Source of the DNA: a virus
Taxonomy: Duplodnaviria; Caudoviricetes
Reading direction: 5' to 3' (one strand)
Virus record (IMG/VR): IMGVR_UViG_3300021399_000147
Location: 1-64,000 of that record
DNA: 64,000 nt
A program made the position numbers and the translations under genes. Below are positions 3,261 through 41,233 of the stretch, one piece after another (positions within the stretch are counted from its first letter, which is position 1; each line of letters starts with the position of its first letter). The notes beneath the pieces were generated by a model. It did no database searches. It saw only the letters and a list, made by a program, of their open reading frames with translations, and had not been told where the DNA came from.

Positions 3261-3313
3261 ATGTTTAGTTGCTGAGAAACACAAAACGTCAAACGACAGA
3301 AAGGGACAAAACA

Positions 3314-4033
3314 ATGTCAAAAGAAAAGAACGAAACAAAAGTTGGTGTAATTGGACAGATGTATGAGGACAGAAAAACAGGAAAGCTCGGAGTACTTGAA
3401 GACCGTAATGAAAAGTATAAGACTTTGCTGATGCGAGATGAAGAAGGTAATTCATTCAATATTCAGTTCTCAACTTTTCACAGTCAGTGGCACAAGTATC
3501 AGGGTGATACTGTGATTCAGACTTCTGCACAGAAGGAAGAGATTAAGCAGGAAGAAAAGAAGAAAGTCAGAGAGCAGGAAAAGAAAGTACAGAAATCTAA
3601 AAAAGAGCTGTCAGAGATTGGTGAAAAGCCAGTACTATCCAGAGAAGATAAGCTCAAAGCATTGATAGCACTTGAAAATGTTGTTAAAGATGCTGTCGAA
3701 AAGAAAATCCCAAATTCAAAAGTAACCCACACAATGAGAGGTGGAGTGAAAGTCTACTATAAGAGAAAGTATCTTATGGGATTATATCCAAGAACAATGG
3801 AAAACAAGGTAACAGTGGACACTACAACTGATATTGCTAATCTGATTGATTTAGGTGATATTGAGGTAGAGAAGATTGTACATAAAGAATGGCATATTAG
3901 CACAAAGCTAAGATTCTCAGATAAGTACCTCAATGATGTACTGAAAATCTTCATAGGAGTATTAGTTGATTATGTCAATAATACATACATTACTAACGAA
4001 AAAACGAAAGAAACGAAGGAGGAAAACAAGTAA
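3314..4033 (+). CDS. Hypothetical protein (SH3-like N-terminus, Lys/Glu-rich linker)
   Basis: Long ORF, ATG at 3314 downstream of promoter; no recognised family. Confidence 0.6.
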   Translation: MSKEKNETKVGVIGQMYEDRKTGKLGVLEDRNEKYKTLLMRDEEGNSFNIQFSTFHSQWHKYQGDTVIQTSAQKEEIKQEEKKKVREQEKKVQKSKKELSEIGEKPVLSREDKLKALIALENVVKDAVEKKIPNSKVTHTMRGGVKVYYKRKYLMGLYPRTMENKVTVDTTTDIANLIDLGDIEVEKIVHKEWHISTKLRFSDKYLNDVLKIFIGVLVDYVNNTYITNEKTKETKEENK

Positions 4034-4980: not shown

Positions 4981-7236
4981 ATGCCACTATTTGAAGTTCC
5001 AAAGCTAAACGGCCGAGAGCAAGATTTAGCATTATTGAAAAAGTCCAAGACGAGAACAAAAACAACTGCCGCCACTAAATCAAGTGGTGGCAGTCTTGTT
5101 AATAAGATAAACGCCATAAAAGCTATGGTAGAAACTCATCTTGGAAAGTATAAAGATGAAACGCTCATCATACAAGACATAGATACACTCCATGACTATA
5201 TAGATAAATGTATAGCTAATGGAATATGTGGTATTGATACAGAAACAACAGGACTAGACCCATTACAAGATGATTTAGTAGGAGTAGGTATATATACCCC
5301 TAATGAAAAGACAACATATATTCCTATAAATCATATATCATATGTTACTGGACAAAGAGTAAAAAATCAGCTAACAGAAGAAGAGGTTGGAAAAGAGTTA
5401 GCAAGATTAAATATAGACATAGATATGTTCAATGCTCCATTTGATATACGATTTATCAAGAATCATAATGGTCCAAGATTAAAGTGTACATGGGATGCAT
5501 ACTTAGCTTCAAGATGTTTGAATGAGAATGAGCCTAATAAAGGTTTAAAGAAACTGCATCAGAAGTATGTACTTAGAGGCGAAGAAGATGCCTTCAAGTT
5601 TGATGAGGTATTCAAAGGTGTTAATTTTGCATATGTACCTATACAGACAGGAGCGTTATACGCAGCCCATGACCCTAAGATAACATATGAGTATGCGGAG
5701 TATCAGAGAAATATCTTTAAGACAAAGGAAAGTCTGAAAGATGTGTATTGGGTATTTAAGAATATAGAAATGCCATGTATAGATGCAATCGTTGAGCTAG
5801 AAGATAACGGTGTGGAATTTGACTTTGATTACAATCAAAAATTAAAGGATAAATATCATAAGATATTAGATGAGAAGATGGAAGACTTCCAGACTGCTTA
5901 TCATATGTATGATGAAGATATAGCAAACTATGATGGCAAAGTAAGATTTGATGAGCCTATCAATATAGCATCAGTACCTCAGTTACAAGCATTATTATAC
6001 GACATTATAGGATTAAAGGGGCCGATAGATAAAAAGACAAAAGAACCATCAAGAAGTACATCAGAAGAAGCATTAAAGGTAAATAAAGATAATGCAGTAG
6101 TAAAAGCAATACTGGAGTATAGAGAGTTTGCCACAATCGTAAGTACATTTATAGATAAACTTCCTGAGTGTGTTAATCCAAAAGATGGAAGAATACATTG
6201 TAAGTTTAATCAGTATGGCGCAGACACAGGTCGTATGAGTAGTCAAGACCCTAACCTCCAGAACATACCTTCGCATAATAAAGAAATACGAAAGATGTTT
6301 AAAGCTACTGACGGATATGTGATGATAAGTTCGGATTATTCCCAGCAAGAGCCGCGAATGATGGCACTTCTTTGTGATGATGAAAAGATGATAAATGCGT
6401 ATAAGCAGGGAAAGGATTTATATGCAGAAATCGCCTCATTGTCCTTTAATACAACATATGAAAATTGTCTTGAGTTTAGACCCGATGGAACGACTAACCC
6501 AGAAGGAAAAGAAAGAAGAAGTCAAGCCAAATCTATATTGCTTGGAGTGTTGTATGGAAGAGGGGTGCCAAGTATTGCAGAACAGCTTGGAACAACAACG
6601 GCGAAAGCACAAGCAATAAAAGACTCTGTATTTAGAGGATTTCCTGCTATTGAACAGTTTGAAAAAGACAGTATTCAAATGGCAGAAGATGTAGGATATG
6701 TCACAACATTGTGGGGAAGAAAGAGAAGATTACCTGCAATGATGTTACCAGACTATGAATTTGAATATATAGACAAAGATAGCTCAGACCCATTATCTTT
6801 TGACGAGGACGAAGATACAGAAGTTCCACAAGAGATAATAGATAAATATATGAGAAAGCTCAGTAGAGCGTGGGGAGCGAAACGAGGCAGTATTATAGCA
6901 GAAGCTAGACAAGAGGGTATTAAGATAACAGATAATACTAAGAATAAAGATATTACAAAAGTAGTTAATGCTAGAATACAAGGTAGTGCCGCAGACTTAA
7001 CGAAATTAGCTATGATAAGAATAGTTAATGATGAACGATTGAAAGAGTTAGGTTTCAGATTGCTCATACCTGTACATGATGAGCTGATAGGTGAATGTCC
7101 TGAAGAAAACGTAAAGGAAGTAGCTGAGAGATTCACACATCTCATGAATATAGCTGGTGGAGAGAGGTTTACTATTCCTATAAAGTGTGACGCAGAAATA
7201 ACAAAATGTTGGTATGGAGAACCTATAAGACTATGA
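4981..7236 (+). CDS. polA: Family A DNA polymerase (3'-5' exonuclease + polymerase, no 5'-3' exonuclease domain)
   Basis: ExoI DTETTG; TGRMSSQDPNLQNIP; motif A DYSQQEPR; motif B RSQAKSILLGVLYG; QGSAAD; motif C VHDEL. Confidence 0.95.
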   Translation: MPLFEVPKLNGREQDLALLKKSKTRTKTTAATKSSGGSLVNKINAIKAMVETHLGKYKDETLIIQDIDTLHDYIDKCIANGICGIDTETTGLDPLQDDLVGVGIYTPNEKTTYIPINHISYVTGQRVKNQLTEEEVGKELARLNIDIDMFNAPFDIRFIKNHNGPRLKCTWDAYLASRCLNENEPNKGLKKLHQKYVLRGEEDAFKFDEVFKGVNFAYVPIQTGALYAAHDPKITYEYAEYQRNIFKTKESLKDVYWVFKNIEMPCIDAIVELEDNGVEFDFDYNQKLKDKYHKILDEKMEDFQTAYHMYDEDIANYDGKVRFDEPINIASVPQLQALLYDIIGLKGPIDKKTKEPSRSTSEEALKVNKDNAVVKAILEYREFATIVSTFIDKLPECVNPKDGRIHCKFNQYGADTGRMSSQDPNLQNIPSHNKEIRKMFKATDGYVMISSDYSQQEPRMMALLCDDEKMINAYKQGKDLYAEIASLSFNTTYENCLEFRPDGTTNPEGKERRSQAKSILLGVLYGRGVPSIAEQLGTTTAKAQAIKDSVFRGFPAIEQFEKDSIQMAEDVGYVTTLWGRKRRLPAMMLPDYEFEYIDKDSSDPLSFDEDEDTEVPQEIIDKYMRKLSRAWGAKRGSIIAEARQEGIKITDNTKNKDITKVVNARIQGSAADLTKLAMIRIVNDERLKELGFRLLIPVHDELIGECPEENVKEVAERFTHLMNIAGGERFTIPIKCDAEITKCWYGEPIRL

Positions 7237-8072
7237 ATTTTGCAGTATTTATTACAACCCATGAAAGAGTAGATAGGGTGAGAACATATGACACGTTGAG
7301 AAAATGTGGTTATACAGGAAAGATATATATTGTAGTAGATAATGAAGATAAACAACTACAAAGATATTTGAATAGATTTCCTGACGTCCTGGTCTACAAT
7401 AAACAGCTTCAATTTAATAGATGCGATAAAGTTATAGATACACAGCAAAAAGCGTCTGTAACTTATCCTAGAAATGCTGTGGAAGATTATGCTAAACACT
7501 TCAAACTAGATACTTTTATGGTATGTGATGATGATATAGTCGGATTTAGATACAGATGGGTTGAAGGTACTACTGTGAAATCATTAGCTATGAATGGTGG
7601 GCTAGATAAAGTTTTTGAATTATATTCTGACTATATCTTAGCCCACGATATAGCAGTCACTTCATTTGTACATATGTTATTCTATATGTCAGGTGTGCAT
7701 AATCTTAATAAACGAATATCAGAACAAAGAGAGATTATCCAGCTCTTTATTAGAAATGCAAAGTTTGAAATGAATTGGAAAGGTGTAATGCGTCAAGATA
7801 TGCTCACAAATACTCTTACTTCAAAAGTAGGGTATTTGTGGTGGGCATTACCGTTCATAACATATGATGCTGAGCCTATGAATGAAACAGGTGATAATGA
7901 TGGTGGTATGAAAGAAACTTATAAAAACATATCAGAATATCAACGTTCATTTTTAGGAGTAATCACTACACCATCGTGCTTGAAAATAGGTGGTGCTAAT
8001 GGTAGAATCAAGATGCAATGGGATAAATCCAAAGCATATCCTATGATTATTAGTGGGAGATATAAGAAATGA
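7233..8072 (+). CDS. GT-A glycosyltransferase, TAGT/GREB1-like family, paralog 1
   Basis: FAVFITTHER start, GYTG, RNA, DDD motif, GGMKETY, YPMIIS end; ATGA overlap with polA stop; clearly paralogous to 8069 and 9437. Confidence 0.75.
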   Translation: MNFAVFITTHERVDRVRTYDTLRKCGYTGKIYIVVDNEDKQLQRYLNRFPDVLVYNKQLQFNRCDKVIDTQQKASVTYPRNAVEDYAKHFKLDTFMVCDDDIVGFRYRWVEGTTVKSLAMNGGLDKVFELYSDYILAHDIAVTSFVHMLFYMSGVHNLNKRISEQREIIQLFIRNAKFEMNWKGVMRQDMLTNTLTSKVGYLWWALPFITYDAEPMNETGDNDGGMKETYKNISEYQRSFLGVITTPSCLKIGGANGRIKMQWDKSKAYPMIISGRYKK

Positions 8073-8896
8073 ATTATGCCGTATTTATCTGTACTCATGG
8101 TAGACCATATACTCAGACAACATGGAAAGTGCTGAGAGAATGTGGATATACTGGCGACATTATAATGATGATAGATGATGAAGATGATGATGGTATGGGA
8201 TATTTAGATGTAGTACATCAGGATGACAGAATGTGGCTACATATATTCAGTAAACAGTTATATATAATGGCAAACGACAGTGGTACTGATAAGCCTATAA
8301 GAAATACCCATCTTTATGCATGGAATGCTTGTGAGAATATCGCAAGAATGGATAGATATGATTATGTCATTATAGTAGATGACGATTTAACAGGATTCAG
8401 ATACAGATATGAAGAAGATGGGCATTTAAAATCTCAACCTATAACTAAGAATATGGACAAATTGTTTGAAGCATATCTGAATTATATGGAAAACTCTAAT
8501 ATCTCCGCTCTATCAGTAGCAGATGCTAGAAACTATATAGGTGGTAAAGCAAAAGATGGGCGAAACATGAATACTCTTGTATTCAGAAAAGTAAGAGATA
8601 GAATAGTATGGAAATCTGAAATGTATGAGGAGATGGTAACATCATTACTAGCACAACAGACAGGAAAGTTCATATTTCAGCCAACATTCTTTCAGTATGA
8701 AACAAAGACAATGGCTAAAGATGTTAAAGGTGGTATGGAAGAAATCTATAATAGTAAGAGCATATTTAATAGGTCAGCTTATGTAGTAATGTATCATCCA
8801 TCATGTGTGAGTTTTGACGCAAATAATACTGGGTTTAAACTGAAAAAAGACAATGCATTTCCTAAGTTAATAAGTTCCGAACATAAACTATTGTAA
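8069..8896 (+). CDS. GT-A glycosyltransferase, TAGT/GREB1-like family, paralog 2
   Basis: YAVFICTHGRP, GYTG, DDED, VDDDL, GGMEEIY, FPKLIS. Confidence 0.75.
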   Translation: MNYAVFICTHGRPYTQTTWKVLRECGYTGDIIMMIDDEDDDGMGYLDVVHQDDRMWLHIFSKQLYIMANDSGTDKPIRNTHLYAWNACENIARMDRYDYVIIVDDDLTGFRYRYEEDGHLKSQPITKNMDKLFEAYLNYMENSNISALSVADARNYIGGKAKDGRNMNTLVFRKVRDRIVWKSEMYEEMVTSLLAQQTGKFIFQPTFFQYETKTMAKDVKGGMEEIYNSKSIFNRSAYVVMYHPSCVSFDANNTGFKLKKDNAFPKLISSEHKLL

Positions 8897-8919
8897 GCCT
8901 TAAAAATATGTTATATAAT
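8891..8919 (+). promoter_or_regulatory. sigmaA-type promoter
   Basis: TTGTAA-17 bp-TATAAT upstream of the 8961 ORF. Confidence 0.65.
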
Positions 8920-8960
8920 GTTTGTGTTGAGAAGCTACACAAAACGAGAGAGGAGAAAAC

Positions 8961-9440
8961 ATGAAACAGCTATTTGAAGATGAAAACGCAAAAAACAATC
9001 CTATGGGGGATGACACTAAGTATTCTAGGGCAATACGTGTACCACAGTATGAGCCATCTAATGAAAAGCCCAGTCTTGAATCAGTCTATGACCTTACTAA
9101 GTATAGTAAGCTAATGGCTAAAATCAATAAGTCTGGAGTATCAGAAGAAGAAAAGAAATTCCTTAAATTTGCCGCAACACGACACATTGTATTCACTTAT
9201 AGTAAGATAGCAGATTACTATGCCCATTCAGATAAAGAGATGCAGGAGCTTATGGAAGAGTCTGCATTAGTTATCTTAGATATAGATGATGCAATAGCTA
9301 ATGGTTATGTAGCTCTGTCTGAGAAAATGAAACAGCTTATAGAAGAAGAAAAGGCAAGAGATGCTAAAGCTAAAGATGCTAAGAATATTCTAAAAGCACA
9401 GAGAGAGCTGGCAGAGAAGAAAGCTAAGGAGAAAGTATGA
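8961..9440 (+). CDS. Conserved alpha-helical protein, partner of the phage glycosyltransferase
   Basis: P.YEP, AATRH.VF.Y.KIADYYAH, SALVILD.D.AI.NGY pattern that I recall from phage GT neighbourhoods; overlaps GT3 start. Confidence 0.6.
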   Translation: MKQLFEDENAKNNPMGDDTKYSRAIRVPQYEPSNEKPSLESVYDLTKYSKLMAKINKSGVSEEEKKFLKFAATRHIVFTYSKIADYYAHSDKEMQELMEESALVILDIDDAIANGYVALSEKMKQLIEEEKARDAKAKDAKNILKAQRELAEKKAKEKV

Positions 9441-10288
9441 ACAAACTTGATGATTTTGCAGTAATGATATTATGTCATGGCAGAGCAGAAAATGTTCCTA
9501 CTTATCCAACACTAAGAAAATATGGATATAGCGGTAGAATAATTGTAGTTTGTGATGATGAGGACACAGACTTACCTAATTATCAAGCTATATATCCTGA
9601 AGTGCAAGTATTCTCAAAACAAGAAGTATTAAAATATACCGACCCTATGGATAATAAGCATGATATGAGATGCGCAGTATACGCCAGAAATGCTTGTTTT
9701 GACATAGCGGAAAAAGAGGGAATTAAATACTTTGTAGAGTTAGATGATGATTATGTAGGAATGCCATACAGATATGAAGAAGATGGTGTAATGTATCGTA
9801 GTACATTAGCCAATCTTGATAAAGTATTTGAGGCTTACATAGATTTCTTAGAAACTAACGAGAACATCTATTCAGTAGCATTTGGACAGCCTGGGGATTT
9901 CATAGGGGGAGTAGGAAGTAGACTGCATCAGATGAAGTATAGAAGAAAAGTCATGAATAGTTGGATATGTAAAACTGAAAGAAGATTTACATTTAATGGT
10001 ACTATGGAAGATGACTTTTTAACTTACAGTTTATTAGGAAGTCAAGGTAAAATCTTTATTACTTTTGATTTCATAATGATAGACCAGCCAGAAACTCAGC
10101 AAGTACAAGGTGGAATGACAGATATGTATTTAGGTGCAGGTACATATCAGAAATCTTGGTACGGAGTATTATGTTGTCCATCATTTGTAAAAATAGGTAT
10201 GATGGGAGATAGGCATTATAGAATACATCATCAAGTAGAACATGAATGTGCTTACCCAATGATTATATCAAGTAAATACAAAAAATAG
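9437..10288 (+). CDS. GT-A glycosyltransferase, TAGT/GREB1-like family, paralog 3 (most canonical)
   Basis: FAVMILCHGR, DDED, YARN, ELDDDY, FIGG, RKVMNS, EDD, GGMTDMY, TYQKS, RIHH, YPMIIS. Confidence 0.8.
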   Translation: MNKLDDFAVMILCHGRAENVPTYPTLRKYGYSGRIIVVCDDEDTDLPNYQAIYPEVQVFSKQEVLKYTDPMDNKHDMRCAVYARNACFDIAEKEGIKYFVELDDDYVGMPYRYEEDGVMYRSTLANLDKVFEAYIDFLETNENIYSVAFGQPGDFIGGVGSRLHQMKYRRKVMNSWICKTERRFTFNGTMEDDFLTYSLLGSQGKIFITFDFIMIDQPETQQVQGGMTDMYLGAGTYQKSWYGVLCCPSFVKIGMMGDRHYRIHHQVEHECAYPMIISSKYKK

Positions 10289-10299
10289 GAGGAAAGATA

Positions 10300-11418
10300 A
10301 TGAAATTCACAACAAACACAGCACAGTTTCAGAACATGGTAGCAAAAGCAGTAAAGGGAGCGGGTATGAATAATGACTTATTCATTACTCAGCTTATGTC
10401 AATATCATTAAAGGACAATGTATTGACACTAACAACAACAGATAGCAATAACTATCTGTATGTCAAACAGCACAAGGTAGCAGGAGAAGATTTTTCAGTA
10501 GTAGTAGCAGTAGATAAGTTTGCAAAGCTCATTTCCAAGCTTACTTGTGAAGAGGTAACTCTTGAAATTCCTACTGCAAAGCAGGGTGAGTTAGATAAGT
10601 TAGTGATTAAAGGTAATGGTAAGTATGTCATTGAATTACCTTATGATGAAGAGGGTGAACTGATTGACTATCCAAATCCACTTGAAGCAGATAGTGAAAA
10701 ATTCTGGAGTCATTCAGAAGTAAAGTTATCCACTATTAGACACATTCTTTCAACAGCTAAAGCCGCATTGCTTGTAGGTAAAGAAGATATGTGTTATTCA
10801 GACTATTATGTAGGAGATAGGGTAGTAGCAACAGATACATATAAAATCTGTGGTATTGATGTAAAAATCTTTGATGAACCTAAACTTATCTCATCTCAGC
10901 TCATGGATTTACTTGACGTAATGACACAGGAGAACATTGAGGTAAGATATAATGATGATACAATCATCTTTGATACAGGTGATGTTACTGTATATGGTAA
11001 GTCAGATGAGGGTGTAGAAGAGTATCAGATTGATGCTATCTCAGGACTTCTTGATGAACAGTTCCCAAGCTCATGTAAGATAGAGAAGTCACCACTGTTA
11101 CAGATGCTTGACCGTCTATCATTGTTTGTAGATGTATTCGATAAGAATAGTGTATACCTTACTTTCACAAAAGAAGGACTTCAGGTATCATCTAAGAAAG
11201 ACAGTGGTTCAGAGTTAATTCCATATAAAGAGAGTGATAACTTTGCAGACTATACCTGCTGTCTTGATATTGACCTTTTTAAGACACAGGTTAAAGCCTA
11301 TCAGTCAGATGTTATCGAGATTCTGTATGGCAAGGAAAATAGTGTAAAGTTTGTGCTTAATAGTACAAAGCAGGTTATCGCCCTTGCAGATGATGACAGA
11401 ACAACAGAGGAAGAATAA
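10300..11418 (+). CDS. dnaN: DNA polymerase sliding clamp (beta subunit-like)
   Basis: 372 aa with three-domain beta-clamp pattern (LTLTTTD, VATDTYK, LLQMLDRLSLF); clamp-loader genes in same genome. Confidence 0.8.
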   Translation: MKFTTNTAQFQNMVAKAVKGAGMNNDLFITQLMSISLKDNVLTLTTTDSNNYLYVKQHKVAGEDFSVVVAVDKFAKLISKLTCEEVTLEIPTAKQGELDKLVIKGNGKYVIELPYDEEGELIDYPNPLEADSEKFWSHSEVKLSTIRHILSTAKAALLVGKEDMCYSDYYVGDRVVATDTYKICGIDVKIFDEPKLISSQLMDLLDVMTQENIEVRYNDDTIIFDTGDVTVYGKSDEGVEEYQIDAISGLLDEQFPSSCKIEKSPLLQMLDRLSLFVDVFDKNSVYLTFTKEGLQVSSKKDSGSELIPYKESDNFADYTCCLDIDLFKTQVKAYQSDVIEILYGKENSVKFVLNSTKQVIALADDDRTTEEE

Positions 11419-11436
11419 CTCACTATGACTAGATTG

Positions 11437-11466
11437 AGGGAGAGTTAAATACTCTCCCTTATTTTA
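11437..11466 (+). terminator. Intrinsic terminator-like hairpin
   Basis: AGGGAGAGT-taaat-ACTCTCCCT followed by T-rich run. Confidence 0.6.
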
Positions 11467-13024: not shown

Positions 13025-13525
13025 ATGGCAATATCTAAAGAATTATTAGATAAGATAGAGTCAAATTCAGAAGAGCTGGATAAGACCATAAATGAAATTA
13101 CAGAAATGTATTCAGGTGAACTTGATGAATATATGAGATTTGTATTAGGTATTCTTAGAGATGATAAACAGCCACCTACTGATGAAGAGTTGGATGACTT
13201 TGTTCTTAGATTATCTTCACTCATATATTTTACAAGTGTTGGTGCAGAACAGATGGGCATAAGAGATGATTTATCCCACACTGCATATAAAGAAGCATAT
13301 AATACCGCTCGTTCATTATTGACAACAGGTACTGTAGCTGATAAAAACGCACAGGCAGAGCTAGATGCATTAGCTGAACACGTAGTACATCTGGTATATA
13401 ACAAGTCATATAAGATTTTGAAAGCAAAAGTAGAAGCGGCACAGGAAGTATTATCTTCTATAAAGAAGGTAATAAGCCGTAGAATGAGCGATTTCACTAC
13501 ATCTCAGTTAGATGTTAATAAGTAA
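13025..13525 (+). CDS. Helical hypothetical protein, possible recombination mediator (UvsY-like)
   Basis: All-helical 166 aa directly before recA; function inferred from context. Confidence 0.4.
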   Translation: MAISKELLDKIESNSEELDKTINEITEMYSGELDEYMRFVLGILRDDKQPPTDEELDDFVLRLSSLIYFTSVGAEQMGIRDDLSHTAYKEAYNTARSLLTTGTVADKNAQAELDALAEHVVHLVYNKSYKILKAKVEAAQEVLSSIKKVISRRMSDFTTSQLDVNK

Positions 13526-17906: not shown

Positions 17907-18219
17907 GTTCTTATTAGTAATAATTATGTGCCTAATGCTATCAGGGTGTGAAGATAAAGAGTTAATTAAAGATACTGTAATAGATTGTAGATATAATGAA
18001 TCTTACACAGAAACAGTTACCGATTACGATTATAAATATAATCTGCATGAAAGTAAGTGGGAGTTAGTTCCTGATATTCACACAGAGTATCATCCTGAAA
18101 GCTATGAGCTATACCATGAATATACATATTCAGATGGCAGTACAAGAAGAGTATGGACATACTGTACTAGAGGAGAATATTTAGCTACCTCAAAGGAGTT
18201 ATATGGAACAGACTATTAA
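17887..18219 (+). CDS. Putative lipoprotein
   Basis: GTG start, hydrophobic signal and lipobox LSGC. Confidence 0.55.
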   Translation: MSKTISKFLLVIIMCLMLSGCEDKELIKDTVIDCRYNESYTETVTDYDYKYNLHESKWELVPDIHTEYHPESYELYHEYTYSDGSTRRVWTYCTRGEYLATSKELYGTDY

Positions 18220-18595
18220 AGAGAAAATACTTCAAAGAAGAAGGCAGATGTTAGTCCATTCTTATATATATTATGAATTGAACCAGAATATAGTATCTGA
18301 CCATCAATGGGCTAAATGGGCTAAAGAATTAGAACAGTTGCAGAAGGATTATCCTAAAGAATCATCAGAAGTAATGTATTATGAGGACTTCAAAAACTGG
18401 GATGGTAGCTCAGGTGCATTTTTAAATTTTGGAGAAGATATAAAGACCGTCGCAAAAATTCTTTTAGGAGAAATTAAAATCTCAGATTCTACTAATATAA
18501 AGTCAAATTTTGTACAAAAAGTACAAAAATCACAATTAAAATCACTAAATCCTAAAAAATCAGTGAAAAATAGTGGAACAAGGAGTTTATTCTAA
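18203..18595 (+). CDS. Stand-alone NAD+-dependent ligase domain Ia-like protein
   Basis: HSYIYYE...IVSD..W......L..L...YP matches LigA N-terminal helical hairpin; no adenylation (KxDG) domain. Confidence 0.6.
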   Translation: MEQTIKEKILQRRRQMLVHSYIYYELNQNIVSDHQWAKWAKELEQLQKDYPKESSEVMYYEDFKNWDGSSGAFLNFGEDIKTVAKILLGEIKISDSTNIKSNFVQKVQKSQLKSLNPKKSVKNSGTRSLF

Positions 18596-20887: not shown

Positions 20888-21004
20888 GTATCTAAAAGAA
20901 GAGGAAGAAAAGCAAAACATAAGTTTATTGCCAACATTAGATGAGTTGTATGAGATGGAAAGTTACTTGTATGACCCTGATGTAGAAAATGCAGGAGATA
21001 GAGA

Positions 21005-21256
21005 TTGAATAAGAAGTTATTGATGGAACAATTTGATGACATTTTAGCAAGTTATCGTCCAGAAGATTCAAAGATAGTTTGTGACACCGTGAACGAATTG
21101 TGTGAACATGGTATACCTAAGGGGTGTTATCAAAATTATGCGGTATTGAACGACATTCTTAGAGTTTTAGGTATATTCGAGAGTTTGGTTAAGATTAAAG
21201 GGGATGAAAATGAACAAAACTCAGAAAGTAAAAGAGCATCTATTGAGATTCGGTAG
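21005..21256 (+). CDS. Hypothetical protein
   Basis: ORF track. Confidence 0.45.
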   Translation: MNKKLLMEQFDDILASYRPEDSKIVCDTVNELCEHGIPKGCYQNYAVLNDILRVLGIFESLVKIKGDENEQNSESKRASIEIR

Positions 21257-21431
21257 TATAACTTCTTGGGATGCCATAAATCTTTATGGCGAAACAAGAT
21301 TATCTGATGTAATATTAAAGCTCAGACAAAAGGGTTGGGATATTAAAACTGTCAGGTGTGAGTTTACAGACAGATATGGTAATATTGGTAAATATGCAAA
21401 CTATGTTTTGAAAGGGGATGATGATGTATAG
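21210..21431 (+). CDS. Winged HTH protein (HTH_39-like)
   Basis: Q..KEHL...GSITSW.AI..YG.TRLS..I..LR..GW.I. Confidence 0.75.
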   Translation: MNKTQKVKEHLLRFGSITSWDAINLYGETRLSDVILKLRQKGWDIKTVRCEFTDRYGNIGKYANYVLKGDDDV

Positions 21432-21669
21432 AATATTTCAGAACAAGAGAAATCCAAATAAGTTTATAGAAGTGAAACGATATAACGATGGCCATTATGT
21501 ATGGAAACAGTTTATCGAAAATACAGTTACTCATACAAGAACTTATACAGGATGTTCCCTTAAAAGAAGTAAGCTAGGTAAATGGAATAGAGTAAGTTGT
21601 GATACATTAGCAGAGGTAATATCTAGTGATTATGTATTTGTAATGGAGGAGATGGAGAACAATGAGTAA
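21418..21669 (+). CDS. Hypothetical protein
   Basis: ORF track. Confidence 0.5.
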   Translation: MMMYRIFQNKRNPNKFIEVKRYNDGHYVWKQFIENTVTHTRTYTGCSLKRSKLGKWNRVSCDTLAEVISSDYVFVMEEMENNE

Positions 21670-21898
21670 TTCAAACAGTAACAATTCAAACAGTAACAAA
21701 TCAACAGCAGGTGGAGTAACATTCTGTGGACTTCTTACAATAGCTTTTATTGTATTAAAGCTGACAGGAATAATCACATGGTCATGGGTATGGGTATTAG
21801 CCCCTCTATGGATACCAGCTATCATTGTTATAACAACGATTATAACTTTTATAGTCCTAATAATAAGATTTAACGGGGAGGTAAATAATGACAGATAA
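21662..21898 (+). CDS. Small phage membrane protein
   Basis: GG.TF.GLLTIAFIVLKL.G.I.WSW.WVLAPLW, a common phage TM family. Confidence 0.7.
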   Translation: MSNSNSNNSNSNKSTAGGVTFCGLLTIAFIVLKLTGIITWSWVWVLAPLWIPAIIVITTIITFIVLIIRFNGEVNNDR

Positions 21899-22124
21899 CA
21901 ATTTAAAAATGACATTCGATTATAAATATCCAGACGAGCCAGTATTGATGATATATAGAGTTACAAACTTTGGTGTTATGTTTGGTTCTGAGCCTTCTAT
22001 AAGTGTTGTGAAAACTTTTGTAGGAGAAGAGGCTCTAAATCTATATTCTAAGTTATCAGGAAAAGATATAGATAAAATCAAAAAAGACGCTGGATGTGAA
22101 AATAATAATAAGGAGAATATATAA
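21888..22124 (+). CDS. Hypothetical protein
   Basis: ORF track. Confidence 0.5.
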   Translation: MTDNNLKMTFDYKYPDEPVLMIYRVTNFGVMFGSEPSISVVKTFVGEEALNLYSKLSGKDIDKIKKDAGCENNNKENI

Positions 22125-23161
22125 TGAAATCACTAGCAGTACAATACCGCCCCAAGACATTTGAGGATGTGACAGAACAAGAGGCAATAAAGATTATTTT
22201 AAAACAGCAGTTAGAGAGTGGTAATATCCATTCAGCTATGTTATTCTGTGGACCATCAGGTGATGGTAAGACAACAACAGCAAGAATCTTTGCAAACGAA
22301 TTAAATAAGGGTAAAGGTGTTCCTATTGAGATGGATGCCGCATCACACAATGGTGTAGATGATGTAAAAGAGATATGTAAGATGGCAAGTACAAAATCCA
22401 TTGATTCAGAATATAAAGTAATTATAGTGGATGAATGTCATTCTATATCCAATACTGGTTGGCAAGCTATGCTAAAAACAATAGAAGAACCACCAGCAAA
22501 AGTAGTATTTATTTTCTGTACTACCGATCCACAGAAGATACCAGCAACAATACTATCGAGAGTGCAGAGATTCCAGTTTAGTAAAGTAAGTACAAACGGT
22601 ATAGCAAGTAGATTGACATACATAGCGGAACAGGAAAATATTTCTATTAACTCTGATGCCATTATGTATATAGCTAAATTAGCTAATGGCGGTATGCGAC
22701 TTGCTATACAGTATCTTGAAAAGTGTGCGGCATATGAGAATAATGGAGAGATTAAAGTAGATAGTGTGGTAAAAGCACTTAATGTAACAGATTATAAAGA
22801 CTATACCAAGCTTACAGACCTGATAGTTTCTCAGAAGAAGTCAGAGCTTATTATGTTCCTTGATGAAATTTATGCTTCTGGAGTCGATTTTAAGCAGTTT
22901 TTAAAGCAGTATGTACAGTTTATATTAGATGTGAATAAAGCACTAATCCTAGATGACCTGGATGAAACATTTAAGTACACAAGTTTGCCTAGAACTAATG
23001 ATATAGAAACATGGCTGACAGAGATACTGCAGGATGGAAATCTTGATTTGTTCAACAGACTTTTAAGCCATTTAGTAAAGACAGATTCAGAGGTTAAATA
23101 TAGCCAGAGCGTAAAGTGTGATATAGAGTGTGCAATATTATTATTTGAGGTGGAAAAATGA
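22124..23161 (+). CDS. dnaX: Clamp loader gamma/tau subunit (DnaX-like)
   Basis: YRPKTFEDV..Q, GPSGDGKTTTARIFA, EMDAAS.NGVDD, DECH, KTIEEPP, PATILSR. Confidence 0.9.
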   Translation: MKSLAVQYRPKTFEDVTEQEAIKIILKQQLESGNIHSAMLFCGPSGDGKTTTARIFANELNKGKGVPIEMDAASHNGVDDVKEICKMASTKSIDSEYKVIIVDECHSISNTGWQAMLKTIEEPPAKVVFIFCTTDPQKIPATILSRVQRFQFSKVSTNGIASRLTYIAEQENISINSDAIMYIAKLANGGMRLAIQYLEKCAAYENNGEIKVDSVVKALNVTDYKDYTKLTDLIVSQKKSELIMFLDEIYASGVDFKQFLKQYVQFILDVNKALILDDLDETFKYTSLPRTNDIETWLTEILQDGNLDLFNRLLSHLVKTDSEVKYSQSVKCDIECAILLFEVEK

Positions 23162-23346
23162 CAAAGTATAAGTATGAAGTGGTCAGAACTTATGATGATG
23201 GCAAATGTGAAGCAAATTTACAAAGTGCATTTGATATTGGCTATGAGTTTGTAAGAGCATCAGAATATGTACCTGAAGCCACTCACAATGGAACGAGAAG
23301 GTATGGCTATATAGAGTATATTCTTAGAAAAGAGGTAGAGGAATGA
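23158..23346 (+). CDS. Small hypothetical protein
   Basis: ORF track; overlapping starts. Confidence 0.5.
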   Translation: MTKYKYEVVRTYDDGKCEANLQSAFDIGYEFVRASEYVPEATHNGTRRYGYIEYILRKEVEE

Positions 23347-23945
23347 CAAAGAGAGATTTAGTGAAGTGGTTAGAAAGAAAACAGTCTGAAGCCTACGATA
23401 CAGCTTCAGAGTATGCGGATAAAAAGATTGATGAGATTAAAGAGTCATTTTATAAAGATTTAGGTCTTGATGAGTTTGTTAATACAGTTGTACCCATCTT
23501 TGAGAAAGCCTTTGCTGAGTATGAAAAGTTTTATAAAAAGATAGATGATATAGATGGAGTATCTATATCAAAGTATGGATTTAGACGAGGCTATTATGAT
23601 ATACAGGACCTTACTGATGCAAGTAAAGTTAGATTATCTATCATAGAATGTCTTAATTATCTTAATCATCCAGTGTTTACAAAGATAAATGAGGCACGTA
23701 ATGAGTGTAAAATGGTAAACCATACTTACAGTACAGTTATTGAAACCGTAAAGAATCTACCAACAGCAAAAGATGGCATTGAGTATCTAAAGAAGCTTGG
23801 CTTTGATGTTTCAGAGATTCAGCCAGCAGAGCAGAAAAAACAACTTCCTGCAACTATTAGCGTTAATGTAGATGTAAAGTATCTTTTATTAAATAAGGAG
23901 AAAGAAGATGTTGGGACAAGCGAAACTGATAGCACAGATAGATGA
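23343..23945 (+). CDS. Hypothetical helical protein within clamp-loader cluster
   Basis: 200 aa ORF between dnaX and holB-like genes. Confidence 0.55.
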   Translation: MTKRDLVKWLERKQSEAYDTASEYADKKIDEIKESFYKDLGLDEFVNTVVPIFEKAFAEYEKFYKKIDDIDGVSISKYGFRRGYYDIQDLTDASKVRLSIIECLNYLNHPVFTKINEARNECKMVNHTYSTVIETVKNLPTAKDGIEYLKKLGFDVSEIQPAEQKKQLPATISVNVDVKYLLLNKEKEDVGTSETDSTDR

Positions 23946-41217: not shown

Positions 41218-41233
41218 TGTTTCACGTGAAACA
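41218..41233. promoter_or_regulatory. parS: parS centromere site (perfect 16-bp palindrome)
   Basis: TGTTTCACGTGAAACA, identical to the canonical bacterial ParB/Spo0J binding consensus. Confidence 0.85.

Follow-up and report, generated by a model that had tools for sequence, protein, structure and literature searches.

A putative two-gene helper-glycosyltransferase module between the DNA polymerase and sliding clamp genes of a ruminant gut phage, and its recurrence in viruses without a known base-priming enzyme

Between the polA and beta-clamp genes of virus record IMGVR_UViG_3300021399_000147 lie three genes for GT-A glycosyltransferases of the TAGT family (PF20691), here GT1 to GT3, and a gene for a 159-aa helical protein, the helper (hel). 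Judged from gene order and conservation, the helper and GT3 form a conserved two-gene module, and no known enzyme for priming a base was found in the genome. The window, i.e., the whole stretch of DNA analysed, comprises the first 64,000 nt of a record of 72,893 bp. The record is 98% complete according to CheckV and its ends overlap by approximately 125 nt, so the genome is essentially complete. The habitat of the phage is the anoxic ruminant gut. We propose that the cassette carries out post-replicative, DNA-directed glycosylation which is guided by an adaptor, sparse, extended by the accessory glycosyltransferases, and requires no known base-priming enzyme; we regard this proposal as evenly poised between right and wrong.

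The layout given by the initial annotation, with GT1, GT2, a helical ORF and GT3 between polA and the beta-clamp gene, was confirmed with exact ORF coordinates, including the overlap of the polA TGA stop with the GT1 ATG as ATGA. All features are on the + strand. The operon starts with the family-A DNA polymerase (polA, 4981..7236; Pfam DNA_pol_A 1.3e-91 and DNA_pol_A_exo1), followed by GT1 (7233..8072, 279 aa), GT2 (8069..8896, 275 aa), the helper (8961..9440) and GT3 (9437..10288, 283 aa), and its last gene encodes the beta sliding clamp (10300..11418; Pfam DNA_pol3_beta, phrog_947). Starts and stops overlap by 4 nt at three junctions, polA/GT1, GT1/GT2 and helper/GT3. GGAGA is located 11 nt 5' of the GT1 start, and a second in-frame ATG for GT1 is present at 7206. 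A terminator-like hairpin with an 11-bp stem and a subsequent T run (11435..11461) is found at the end of the unit. Within the 64-nt gap 5' of the helper gene a consensus scan gave a candidate promoter-like site, TTGTAA-17-TATAAT (8891..8919), which is weak, such matches being no commoner in the sequence than in shuffles. All four cassette genes are under purifying selection, with dN/dS of 0.05-0.22 against two relatives, and an independent contig, approximately 5% diverged, spans the whole cassette.

The glycosyltransferases matched PF20691 with 55.6 bits (GT1, 8.8e-15), 44.8 bits (GT2, 1.8e-11) and 105.8 bits (GT3, 3.8e-30), all above the gathering cut-off of 27.5 bits, and a six-frame search gave the same result. 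All three also matched phrog_842 (5.9e-31, 1.2e-32, and 1.4e-56, respectively). They thus belong to the TAGT type, as first claimed, and not to a cell-envelope family. The alignment likewise agreed with the earlier description of a shared DxD and a divergent later acidic motif: DDD is invariant (residues 103-105 in GT3), while the later motif reads MEDD in GT3, MYEE in GT2 and MRQD in GT1. In the phylogenetic tree GT3 was placed within the core clade, and GT1 and GT2 in a divergent accessory clade. GT3 possesses R16, DDD103-105 and D193, corresponding to the TAGT motif set of an N-terminal Arg, DDD and the later acidic motif. Its AF2 model (pLDDT 89) has a GT-A fold with an alternating beta/alpha core. 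The closest folds were viral TAGT-domain proteins (TM 0.87), and a homologue of the T-even beta-glucosyl-HMC-alpha-glucosyltransferase from PKO111 was matched with TM 0.67 (E 1.7e-8). Among solved structures the best folds were the generic GT-A enzymes GpgS, ColGalT1 and TarP, at TM of about 0.45.

The helper gave no Pfam or NCBIfam match in profile searches and a weak match to the C-terminal part of phrog_620, and PF02195 (ParB_N) was absent from both the protein and the entire genome. It aligned solely to the C-terminal half of ParB_N-containing partner proteins, with 40-60% identity over residues ~17-130 in 85 of 87 loci. The helper-domain alignment comprised 59 sequences with 33-93% identity to the query and revealed the motif Y-T-x-K-I-x-x-P-x-Y-E-P ... 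AAxRHxVFNYxKIADYYAH ... SALVIIDF. No DNA-binding fold was recognisable in the fold analysis (AF2 pLDDT 82), and dN/dS was 0.045. A helper homologue accompanies the glycosyltransferase in 85 of the 87 loci, mostly overlapping its start, and the two exceptions are cut at a contig end; counted by ORF, it lies directly 5' of 78 of 106 TAGT ORFs. Homologues stand alone or make up the C-terminal half of a ParB_N protein, and in some cases they are joined to the glycosyltransferase in one polypeptide. In longer proteins the domain is fused solely with ParB_N and/or TAGT, ParB_N-hel-TAGT proteins included, and the ParB_N halves bear the motifs G-H-x-R-x-x-A and ADN...W. From gene order, the helper appears to be an obligate partner of GT3 only. 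Binding of the helper to GT3 is supported by the modelled complex, which scored 0.86 against 0.00 for the best of three controls, with at least 95% of contacts agreeing between runs and a partner pLDDT of at least 84. This mark was attained by 58 of 80 solved complexes and by 2 of 110 mismatched pairs, and both figures are rough, since own alignments were used. Of the role first suggested for the helical partner, the tie to the glycosyltransferases therefore holds, for GT3 only, while no sign was seen of the helper supplying chemistry.

The initial annotation named the cassette its best candidate for an undescribed system, which overstates its uniqueness. The helper-glycosyltransferase pair has at least 574 matches in IMG/VR, more than a quarter of complete E. 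coli genomes (1580 of 5426) give a match to the ParB(ynaK)-type module, and the pair has homologues in cultured phages of Lactobacillus, Porphyromonas, Nocardia and haloarchaea. The polA-to-clamp context is found in this genome and about 10 loci, and a terminase adjoins the module in 41 of the 87 loci. One locus, L015, has a ParB_N-N6_N4 methyltransferase directly 5' of ParB_N-hel, TAGT and TerS, and an N6/N4 methylase is present in L009. The polA-to-clamp, terminase and methylase neighbours make a DNA-centred context, from which we infer DNA as the probable target. The literature already records that ParB co-occurs with glycosyltransferases, that phage GT-A enzymes resemble JGT, and that approximately 65% of phage glycosyltransferase contigs have no neighbouring 5mYOX or ThyS (bioRxiv 10.1101/2023.12.21.572611). 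New here are the putative two-gene module of helper and GT3, previously unstudied, its spread, and the accessory clade of GT1 and GT2.

The absence of a priming enzyme, originally noted for the window, extends to the whole 72,893-bp record. Tet_JBP, ThyA and ThyX (PF12851, PF00303, PF02511) were absent from it at E<=10, and no match was obtained to C5- or N6/N4-methylases, TGT/DpdA, the dUTPase family or radical SAM, nor to nucleotide-metabolism genes for a pre-replicative route. The six-frame search with PF20691 gave TAGTs of GT-A type only. Neither Tet_JBP nor ThyA occurred in any of 41 related virus records, of which 15 are at least 90% complete, and Tet_JBP was absent from seven cultured phages carrying the pair; the positive control, mycobacteriophage Cooper gp2, was recovered by the Tet_JBP search with E 4e-8. 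TET-type dioxygenases depend on O2 and cannot work in anoxic habitats, so that such an enzyme would be of little use in the ruminant gut.

Restriction sites are strongly avoided in the genome. GATC was observed 6 times against 270 expected, GAATTC 0 against 21, and GGCC 17 against 72. This argues against generally shielded phage DNA and makes wholesale modification of the T4 kind unlikely; the modification would probably be sparse or site-specific rather than genome-wide. The stepwise DNA hypermodification first suggested is thus upheld in part, since the accessory clade is consistent with stepwise extension, while site avoidance speaks against hypermodification throughout the genome. In the proposed mechanism the core would be a heterodimer of GT3 and the helper. 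The latter is best read as a free-standing version of the domain which in most other phages forms the C-terminal half of ParB_N proteins of the CTP-switch type, and by analogy with the ParB partners of phage thymine dioxygenases it would most likely be an adaptor placing or activating GT3 on duplex DNA. GT3 would put on the first sugar, on an acceptor other than a hydroxymethylpyrimidine made by TET or ThyA. Counting against the proposal, besides the site avoidance and the want of a recognisable DNA-binding fold in the helper, we know of no glycosyltransferase acting on canonical DNA, and the acidity of GT3 (pI 5.3) and the helper (pI 6.2) is unusual for DNA binders.

GT1 and GT2 both retain R16, D43, K61, D69, DDD103-105, G204, GG225-226 and Y231, and both are without many core-invariant residues. 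GT1 is missing the core QGGD, K171/N174, TQ and HH residues and has Q at the conserved E192 and E at G15, and GT2 has E at the invariant D193. Because the nucleotide-sugar and metal site is kept and the acceptor side rebuilt, they would probably extend or vary the glycan. The same substitutions would suit dead paralogues, one or both with a structural or regulatory role, leaving GT3 as the only enzyme and no stepwise oligosaccharide; we hold this to be very improbable in view of the retained residues, the dN/dS of GT1 (0.09-0.12) and GT2 (0.10-0.21), and the recurrence of tandem TAGTs in unrelated phages (2-3 copies in 15 of 87 loci, this genome counted). It also seems improbable, if a little less so, that the three are ordinary TAGTs supplied with a hydroxymethyl or hydroxy pyrimidine by a host enzyme or an unrecognised phage one. 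There is room for such an enzyme among the many unannotated ORFs in 16-41 kb, and thousands of 5mYOX-like contigs have no Pfam TET/JBP annotation (PMC13229309). The 254-aa ORF at 3269-4033, with no Pfam or PHROG match, would be another candidate, but it is of low complexity, Lys/Glu-rich and not enzyme-like. A radical SAM gene, which could prime anaerobically, adjoins the glycosyltransferase in 13 of 87 loci and occurs in 9 of 42 records, but not in this genome, where genes for pre-replicative nucleotide metabolism are lacking too. Moreover, temperate phages of 31-38 kb from E. coli, Lactobacillus, Porphyromonas and haloarchaea carry the module among otherwise ordinary genes, and, terminase apart, the pair has no further conserved companion gene in the 87 loci.

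DNA may not be the only class of acceptor, since the TAGT family includes GREB1, a reported protein O-GlcNAc transferase. Like GREB1, NleB-type effectors or prophage TarP, the helper-glycosyltransferase complex and the accessory enzymes could instead modify a polymer of the cell envelope or some protein, be it a host factor, a component of the replisome or of the packaging machinery, or the helper (or ParB partner) itself. This is an unlikely reading, though one to be taken seriously: the nearest solved folds belong to enzymes whose substrates are small molecules, proteins or teichoic acid, the genome has no known route to a hydroxylated base, its site avoidance indicates unshielded DNA, and in the helper Tyr21, Tyr30 and Tyr87 are invariant and the disordered N-terminus bears a conserved P-x-Y-E-P motif. 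Yet in the complex model the Tyr30 region contacts GT3 away from DDD103-105 and D193. In addition, fusion or adjacency to ParB_N is systematic, a ParB_N-type domain is also fused to phage DNA methylases, the module sits among replication and packaging genes, and its closest viral fold relatives are DNA glycosyltransferases of the T-even type. Within the DNA-directed proposal, the boldest form, in which the helper/ParB-TAGT pair attaches sugar straight to an unmodified constituent of DNA, at selected sites and with no priming step, and accessory TAGTs build an oligosaccharide on it, is offered tentatively, as somewhat doubtful. The sugar could be attached to a canonical base, through an exocyclic amine or oxygen, or else to an oxygen at a terminus or in the backbone.

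To our knowledge, all DNA glycosylations characterised so far, those of T-even phages, base J, phage TET pathways and arabinosyl-hydroxy-C, build on a hydroxylated pyrimidine. Here a TAGT and a dedicated, apparently ParB-derived adaptor recur in bacterial and archaeal viruses, anoxic habitats included, without means to make such a base. Either an undescribed DNA glycosylation chemistry exists, or the "DNA glycosyltransferases" include a large branch with another target, and either outcome would lead to re-annotation of thousands of phage genes. If true, direct glycosylation of unmodified DNA would add a new chemical class of DNA modification, present in hundreds of phages, among them those of strict anaerobes and prophages common in E. 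coli. The presence of the pair in cultured phages and many E. coli genomes makes the question directly testable.

Prophage TarP and animal GREB1 share the GT-A fold with the cassette enzymes, TarP being among the top PDB folds and GREB1 carrying a TAGT domain, but TarP acts on wall teichoic acid and GREB1 on protein, and neither has a ParB-type partner or a replication or packaging context. The beta-glucosyl-HMC-alpha-glucosyltransferase of T2/T6, whose name PHROG 842 bears, is a TAGT with a sugar as acceptor and thus a precedent for the role proposed for GT1 and GT2. In T-even phages hmC is made by the ThyA-like gp42 dCMP hydroxymethylase, a dCTPase also belonging to the system, and the first glucose is added by a GT-B enzyme, and as far as we know their enzymes work without a helper; unlike these phages, the cassette genome has no ThyA-like (Thymidylat_synt) or dUTPase-family match. 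The GT-A enzymes associated with phage 5mYOX (TET/JBP) and the trypanosome JGT share PF20691, the GT-A fold and the R...DDD...(E/N)(E/D)D motif set, and the phage ones are likewise often in tandem (di-/tri-saccharides) and near ParB, terminase, polymerase and clamp genes. They differ in that no 5mYOX, C5-methylase or ThyS is found in this genome or the 41 related records, and in the predicted obligate helical partner of the cassette enzyme. In phage ParB_N-DNA methyltransferase fusions a methyl group is transferred by one polypeptide, while an adaptor and an enzyme would transfer sugar here; the ParB_N motifs of the helper partners recur in these fusions, and L015 pairs both systems. A parallel in organisation is found in phage thymine dioxygenases, where ParB activates 5mYOX on dsDNA (O'Toole et al., 2026, PMC13229309). 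The helper bears no similarity to Cooper gp1, encoded upstream of the TET-like gene, and compared with the ParB-dependent dioxygenases the enzyme is a glycosyltransferase and its partner in this phage is without the ParB nucleotide-binding domain. Both systems, however, place a ParB-derived partner without a DNA-binding domain beside a (here putative) base-modifying enzyme, and they would be alike in cognate-pair specificity and in a partner needed on dsDNA, as is the case for the dioxygenases (PMC13229309) and predicted for the helper.

The record comprises 72,893 bp with a CheckV completeness of 98%, and its ends (1-131 and 72769-72893) share a repeat of ~125 nt. The entry labelled linear in IMG/VR is a circularly closed or terminally redundant assembly, and given the end overlap the genome is essentially complete. 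Every gene is on the + strand, GC content is ~0.35, and among cultured phages those of Clostridium are the closest relatives, with ~67% nucleotide identity in polA. Downstream of polA (4981-7236) follow GT1 (7233-8072) and GT2 (8069-8896), a promoter-like site (8891-8919) at a 64-nt gap, the helper ORF hel (8961-9440), GT3 (9437-10288), the beta clamp gene (10300-11418) and a terminator-like hairpin (11435-11461). The three GTs were assigned to Pfam TAGT (PF20691), a family reportedly defined by Iyer et al. in 2013, and to phrog_842, while NCBIfam gave no match for any of the four cassette proteins. Judging by dN/dS values of 0.05-0.22, GT1, GT2, GT3 and the helper are all under purifying selection, the helper being the most constrained. 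GT1, GT2 and the helper share 78-93% amino acid identity with the relatives L006 and L007, two of the IMG/VR loci, against 68-69% for the flanking polA and 70-79% for GT3. This better conservation than in polA suggests that the GT1-GT2-helper part moves by recombination, with mosaic exchange inside the operon. The four-gene unit is real and selected. Elsewhere in the window, a 130-aa ORF (18203-18595) corresponds to the NAD+-binding Ia domain of DNA ligase alone (Pfam Nlig-Ia, 1.4e-26), and a ligase catalytic domain is absent near it.

The gene-neighbourhood survey of homologues proposed in the initial annotation was carried out on 87 loci, namely four annotated phage loci (L002-L005), 82 loci from IMG/VR (L006-L087) and this genome; the IMG/VR scan had yielded at least 574 relatives, and 80 loci from it were retained. 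In 85 of the 87 loci residues ~17-130 of hel have a homologue (40-60% identity, E 1e-25 to 1e-49), and the two loci lacking it are both cut at a contig end. The homologue occurred as a free-standing protein of 123-190 aa (35 cases), as the C-terminal half of a larger protein of 200-340 aa (50 cases), or fused to the GT in a 522-aa protein at locus L013. In profile searches the domain was fused in longer proteins only with ParB_N and/or TAGT, some proteins carrying both, and ParB_N (PF02195) was found in 22 of 42 records. Neither Pfam nor NCBIfam includes a model of the helper domain. ParB_N halves of helper partners contain a G-H-x-R-x-x-A motif, of a type characteristic of the ParB_N domains in fusions with phage DNA methylases. 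This fits two loci with methylase neighbours: at L015:7918-11321, 5' of terminase, a ParB_N-N6_N4 DNA methylase (392 aa), a ParB_N-helper (262 aa), a TAGT (311 aa) and an HTH TerS-like protein (167 aa) are encoded, and at L009 an N6/N4 methylase lies 5' of the GTs. Apart from a radical SAM protein, terminase subunits were the only recurrent neighbours of the pair among the 87 loci.

The system is not unique to this phage. In tblastn against cultured phages GT3 matched proteins of 36-44% identity in lambdoid phages of E. coli and Salmonella, Porphyromonas phages, 190-kb Vibrio phages, Lactobacillus phages c5, phi jlb1, LL-Ku and Ld17, halovirus HHTV-2 and Nocardia NTR1. At all cultured-phage loci inspected, a gene that is either called "ParB-like" or has no name stops within or just 5' of the GT start, and the pair usually lies just 5' of terminase. 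The E. coli pair, a ynaK-type ParB-helper plus TAGT (reference L002:5220-6936 in E. coli phage ON470614, positions 20903-22619 of that accession), had matches in 1580 of 5426 complete E. coli genomes, with 80% or more of its length covered in 889 of these, and is located in lambdoid prophages between lysis genes and terminase. RefSeq names ynaK "ParB/Srx family N-terminal domain-containing protein" and the following TAGT "hypothetical protein"; our literature search returned no functional work on ynaK.

The AF2 model of the helper (pLDDT 82) consists of four short helices and one long helix, and its N-terminal motif is disordered in the model yet conserved. Foldseek gave nothing in the PDB at E<=0.001 and VIA-align wide matched only coiled coils to the long C-terminal helix (Z ~6), results that do not mark the fold as new; the ESM Atlas gave no usable match. 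Sequence and profile searches of the PDB with helper and GT3 returned nothing significant. The helper-GT3 complex was modelled with a score of 0.86, the best of three controls scoring 0.00; 58 of 80 solved complexes attain this mark, as do 2 of 110 mismatched pairs, a calibration which is rough here since our own alignments were used. At least 95% of contacts agreed between runs, and partner pLDDT was at least 84. To the predicted interface GT3 contributes residues 111-144 and 203-213 as well as its conserved C-terminal tail (270-283), and the helper residues 102-137 and 25-32. Binding of GT3 by the helper is supported by the model. In a comparison with the helper profile, gp1 of Mycobacterium phage Cooper showed no similarity, and so gave no sign of a link between the helper and 5mYOX-associated partners. 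Cooper gp1 itself (265 aa; L091:1-1750) lies upstream of, and overlaps, the TET/JBP-like gp2, and has no Pfam match.

A quick tree search with 100 TAGT sequences placed GT1 and GT2 in a divergent 12-member clade (SH-aLRT 99), together with extra GTs from other polymerase-linked cassettes, and GT3 in an 88-member core clade, most members of which lie directly 3' of a helper gene. Tandem arrays of 2-3 TAGTs recur at 15 of the 87 loci, one of which is this genome. The alignment bore out the motifs described in the initial annotation: DDD never varies, and at the later motif GT3 reads MEDD, GT2 MYEE and GT1 MRQD. All members keep R16, D43, K61, D69, DDD103-105, G204, GG225-226 and Y231. Residues that hardly vary in the core (present in 85% or more of its sequences) and are replaced in the accessory clade are Q151/G153/D154, K171/M173/N174, T220/Q221, G235/T236 and H264/H265. 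From this residue pattern we infer that GT1 and GT2 would retain the same donor chemistry and act on another acceptor, the simplest candidate being the sugar placed by GT3.

The initial annotation recognised no priming enzyme in the window, that is, no known enzyme making the hydroxylated base for TAGT sugars, and proposed to seek one in the rest of the genome. This absence extends to all 72,893 bp: six-frame searches at E<=10 gave no hit for Tet_JBP, Thymidylat_synt, Thy1 (ThyX) or C5 DNA methylase, nor for N6/N4 methylase, TGT/DpdA, dUTPase or radical SAM. The Tet_JBP search is able to detect phage homologues, since an identical search recovered mycobacteriophage Cooper gp2 (E 4e-8). Tet_JBP was also absent from all 41 related virus records (15 of them at least 90% complete) and from the seven cultured phages bearing the pair, and Thymidylat_synt from the same 41 records. 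A hidden primer making a hydroxylated base, one of two main rival readings, is, in our judgement, improbable. The larger unassigned ORFs gave replication, recombination, lysis or structural functions or no match in Pfam and PHROG. Six candidates for a hidden enzyme, at 3269-4033, 13025-13525 and 23343-23945 of the window and 66904-67866, 67881-68348 and 68361-68801 of the genome, fell into no enzyme family and are SSB-adjacent, coiled-coil or Gly/Cys-rich proteins. An unclassified radical SAM protein of ~320 aa lies beside the pair at 13 of the 87 loci (9 of 42 records), for example at L014:10875-11834 and, between helper and GT, at L049:9023-9991. It could be a sugar-tailoring or anaerobic priming enzyme; as primer for this phage it was rejected, the gene being absent here and the other loci giving only generic radical SAM matches. 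The cassette was found in bovine and sheep gut metagenomes of three studies besides the probable source sample, one contig of 5,314 nt (~5% diverged) spanning GT1 through the clamp gene; the public runs listed as containing it include no RNA dataset. The ruminant gut is anoxic, so that a TET route, which depends on O2, would hardly be useful there.

The other main rival reading, a protein or other non-DNA acceptor, we regard as unlikely, with a somewhat better claim than the hidden primer. The AF2 model of GT3 is a GT-A fold (pLDDT 89), which among solved structures resembled only generic GT-A enzymes (GpgS, TarP, ColGalT1; TM ~0.45). Its matches in viral models were proteins with a TAGT domain (TM 0.87) and, at TM 0.67, a beta-glucosyl-HMC-alpha-glucosyltransferase of the T-even type. 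The match to viral TAGT folds speaks against assignment to a cell-envelope or protein GT family, which the initial annotation had named as a refuting outcome. We favour, with moderate confidence, a glycosylation system that is guided by an adaptor, needs no priming step and is directed at DNA. Counts over the whole genome (G000:C1:1-72893) were 6 GATC against 270 expected (z -22.7), 0 GAATTC against 21, 1 ATTAAT against 37, 17 GGCC against 72 and 5 GATATC against 41, and such avoidance of palindromes implies that host restriction systems have exerted strong selection in the past. Since wholly hypermodified phage DNA generally needs no restriction-site avoidance, we infer that any modification in this phage is sparse or site-specific. 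A single perfect host-type parS palindrome (TGTTTCACGTGAAACA) lies in non-coding DNA 5' of the terminase operon (window 41218-41233), in a phage that has no ParB_N gene. The other 41 helper-TAGT records all lack parS, which is thus not a general feature of the module, and a ParB_N-less helper using host ParB loaded at phage parS was dropped as a general mechanism.

The system is unexplained yet easy to test. The literature searched describes neither the obligate helper domain nor its form without ParB_N, and neither the naturally occurring fusions nor the acceptor, and a survey of ParB folds (PMC12704722) does not mention GTs. It has already been reported that ~65% of phage contigs with a GT-A or GT-B gene lack 5mYOX or ThyS next to it, and that GTs and ParB-like genes occur together (bioRxiv 10.1101/2023.12.21.572611; PMC8256090). 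The cassette enzymes are TAGT members by sequence and fold, but stand outside the TET/JBP context that gave the family its name. Their nearest functional analogy is the ParB-dependent subclass of thymine dioxygenases, in which a DBD-less ParB activates the dioxygenase on dsDNA (PMC13229309).
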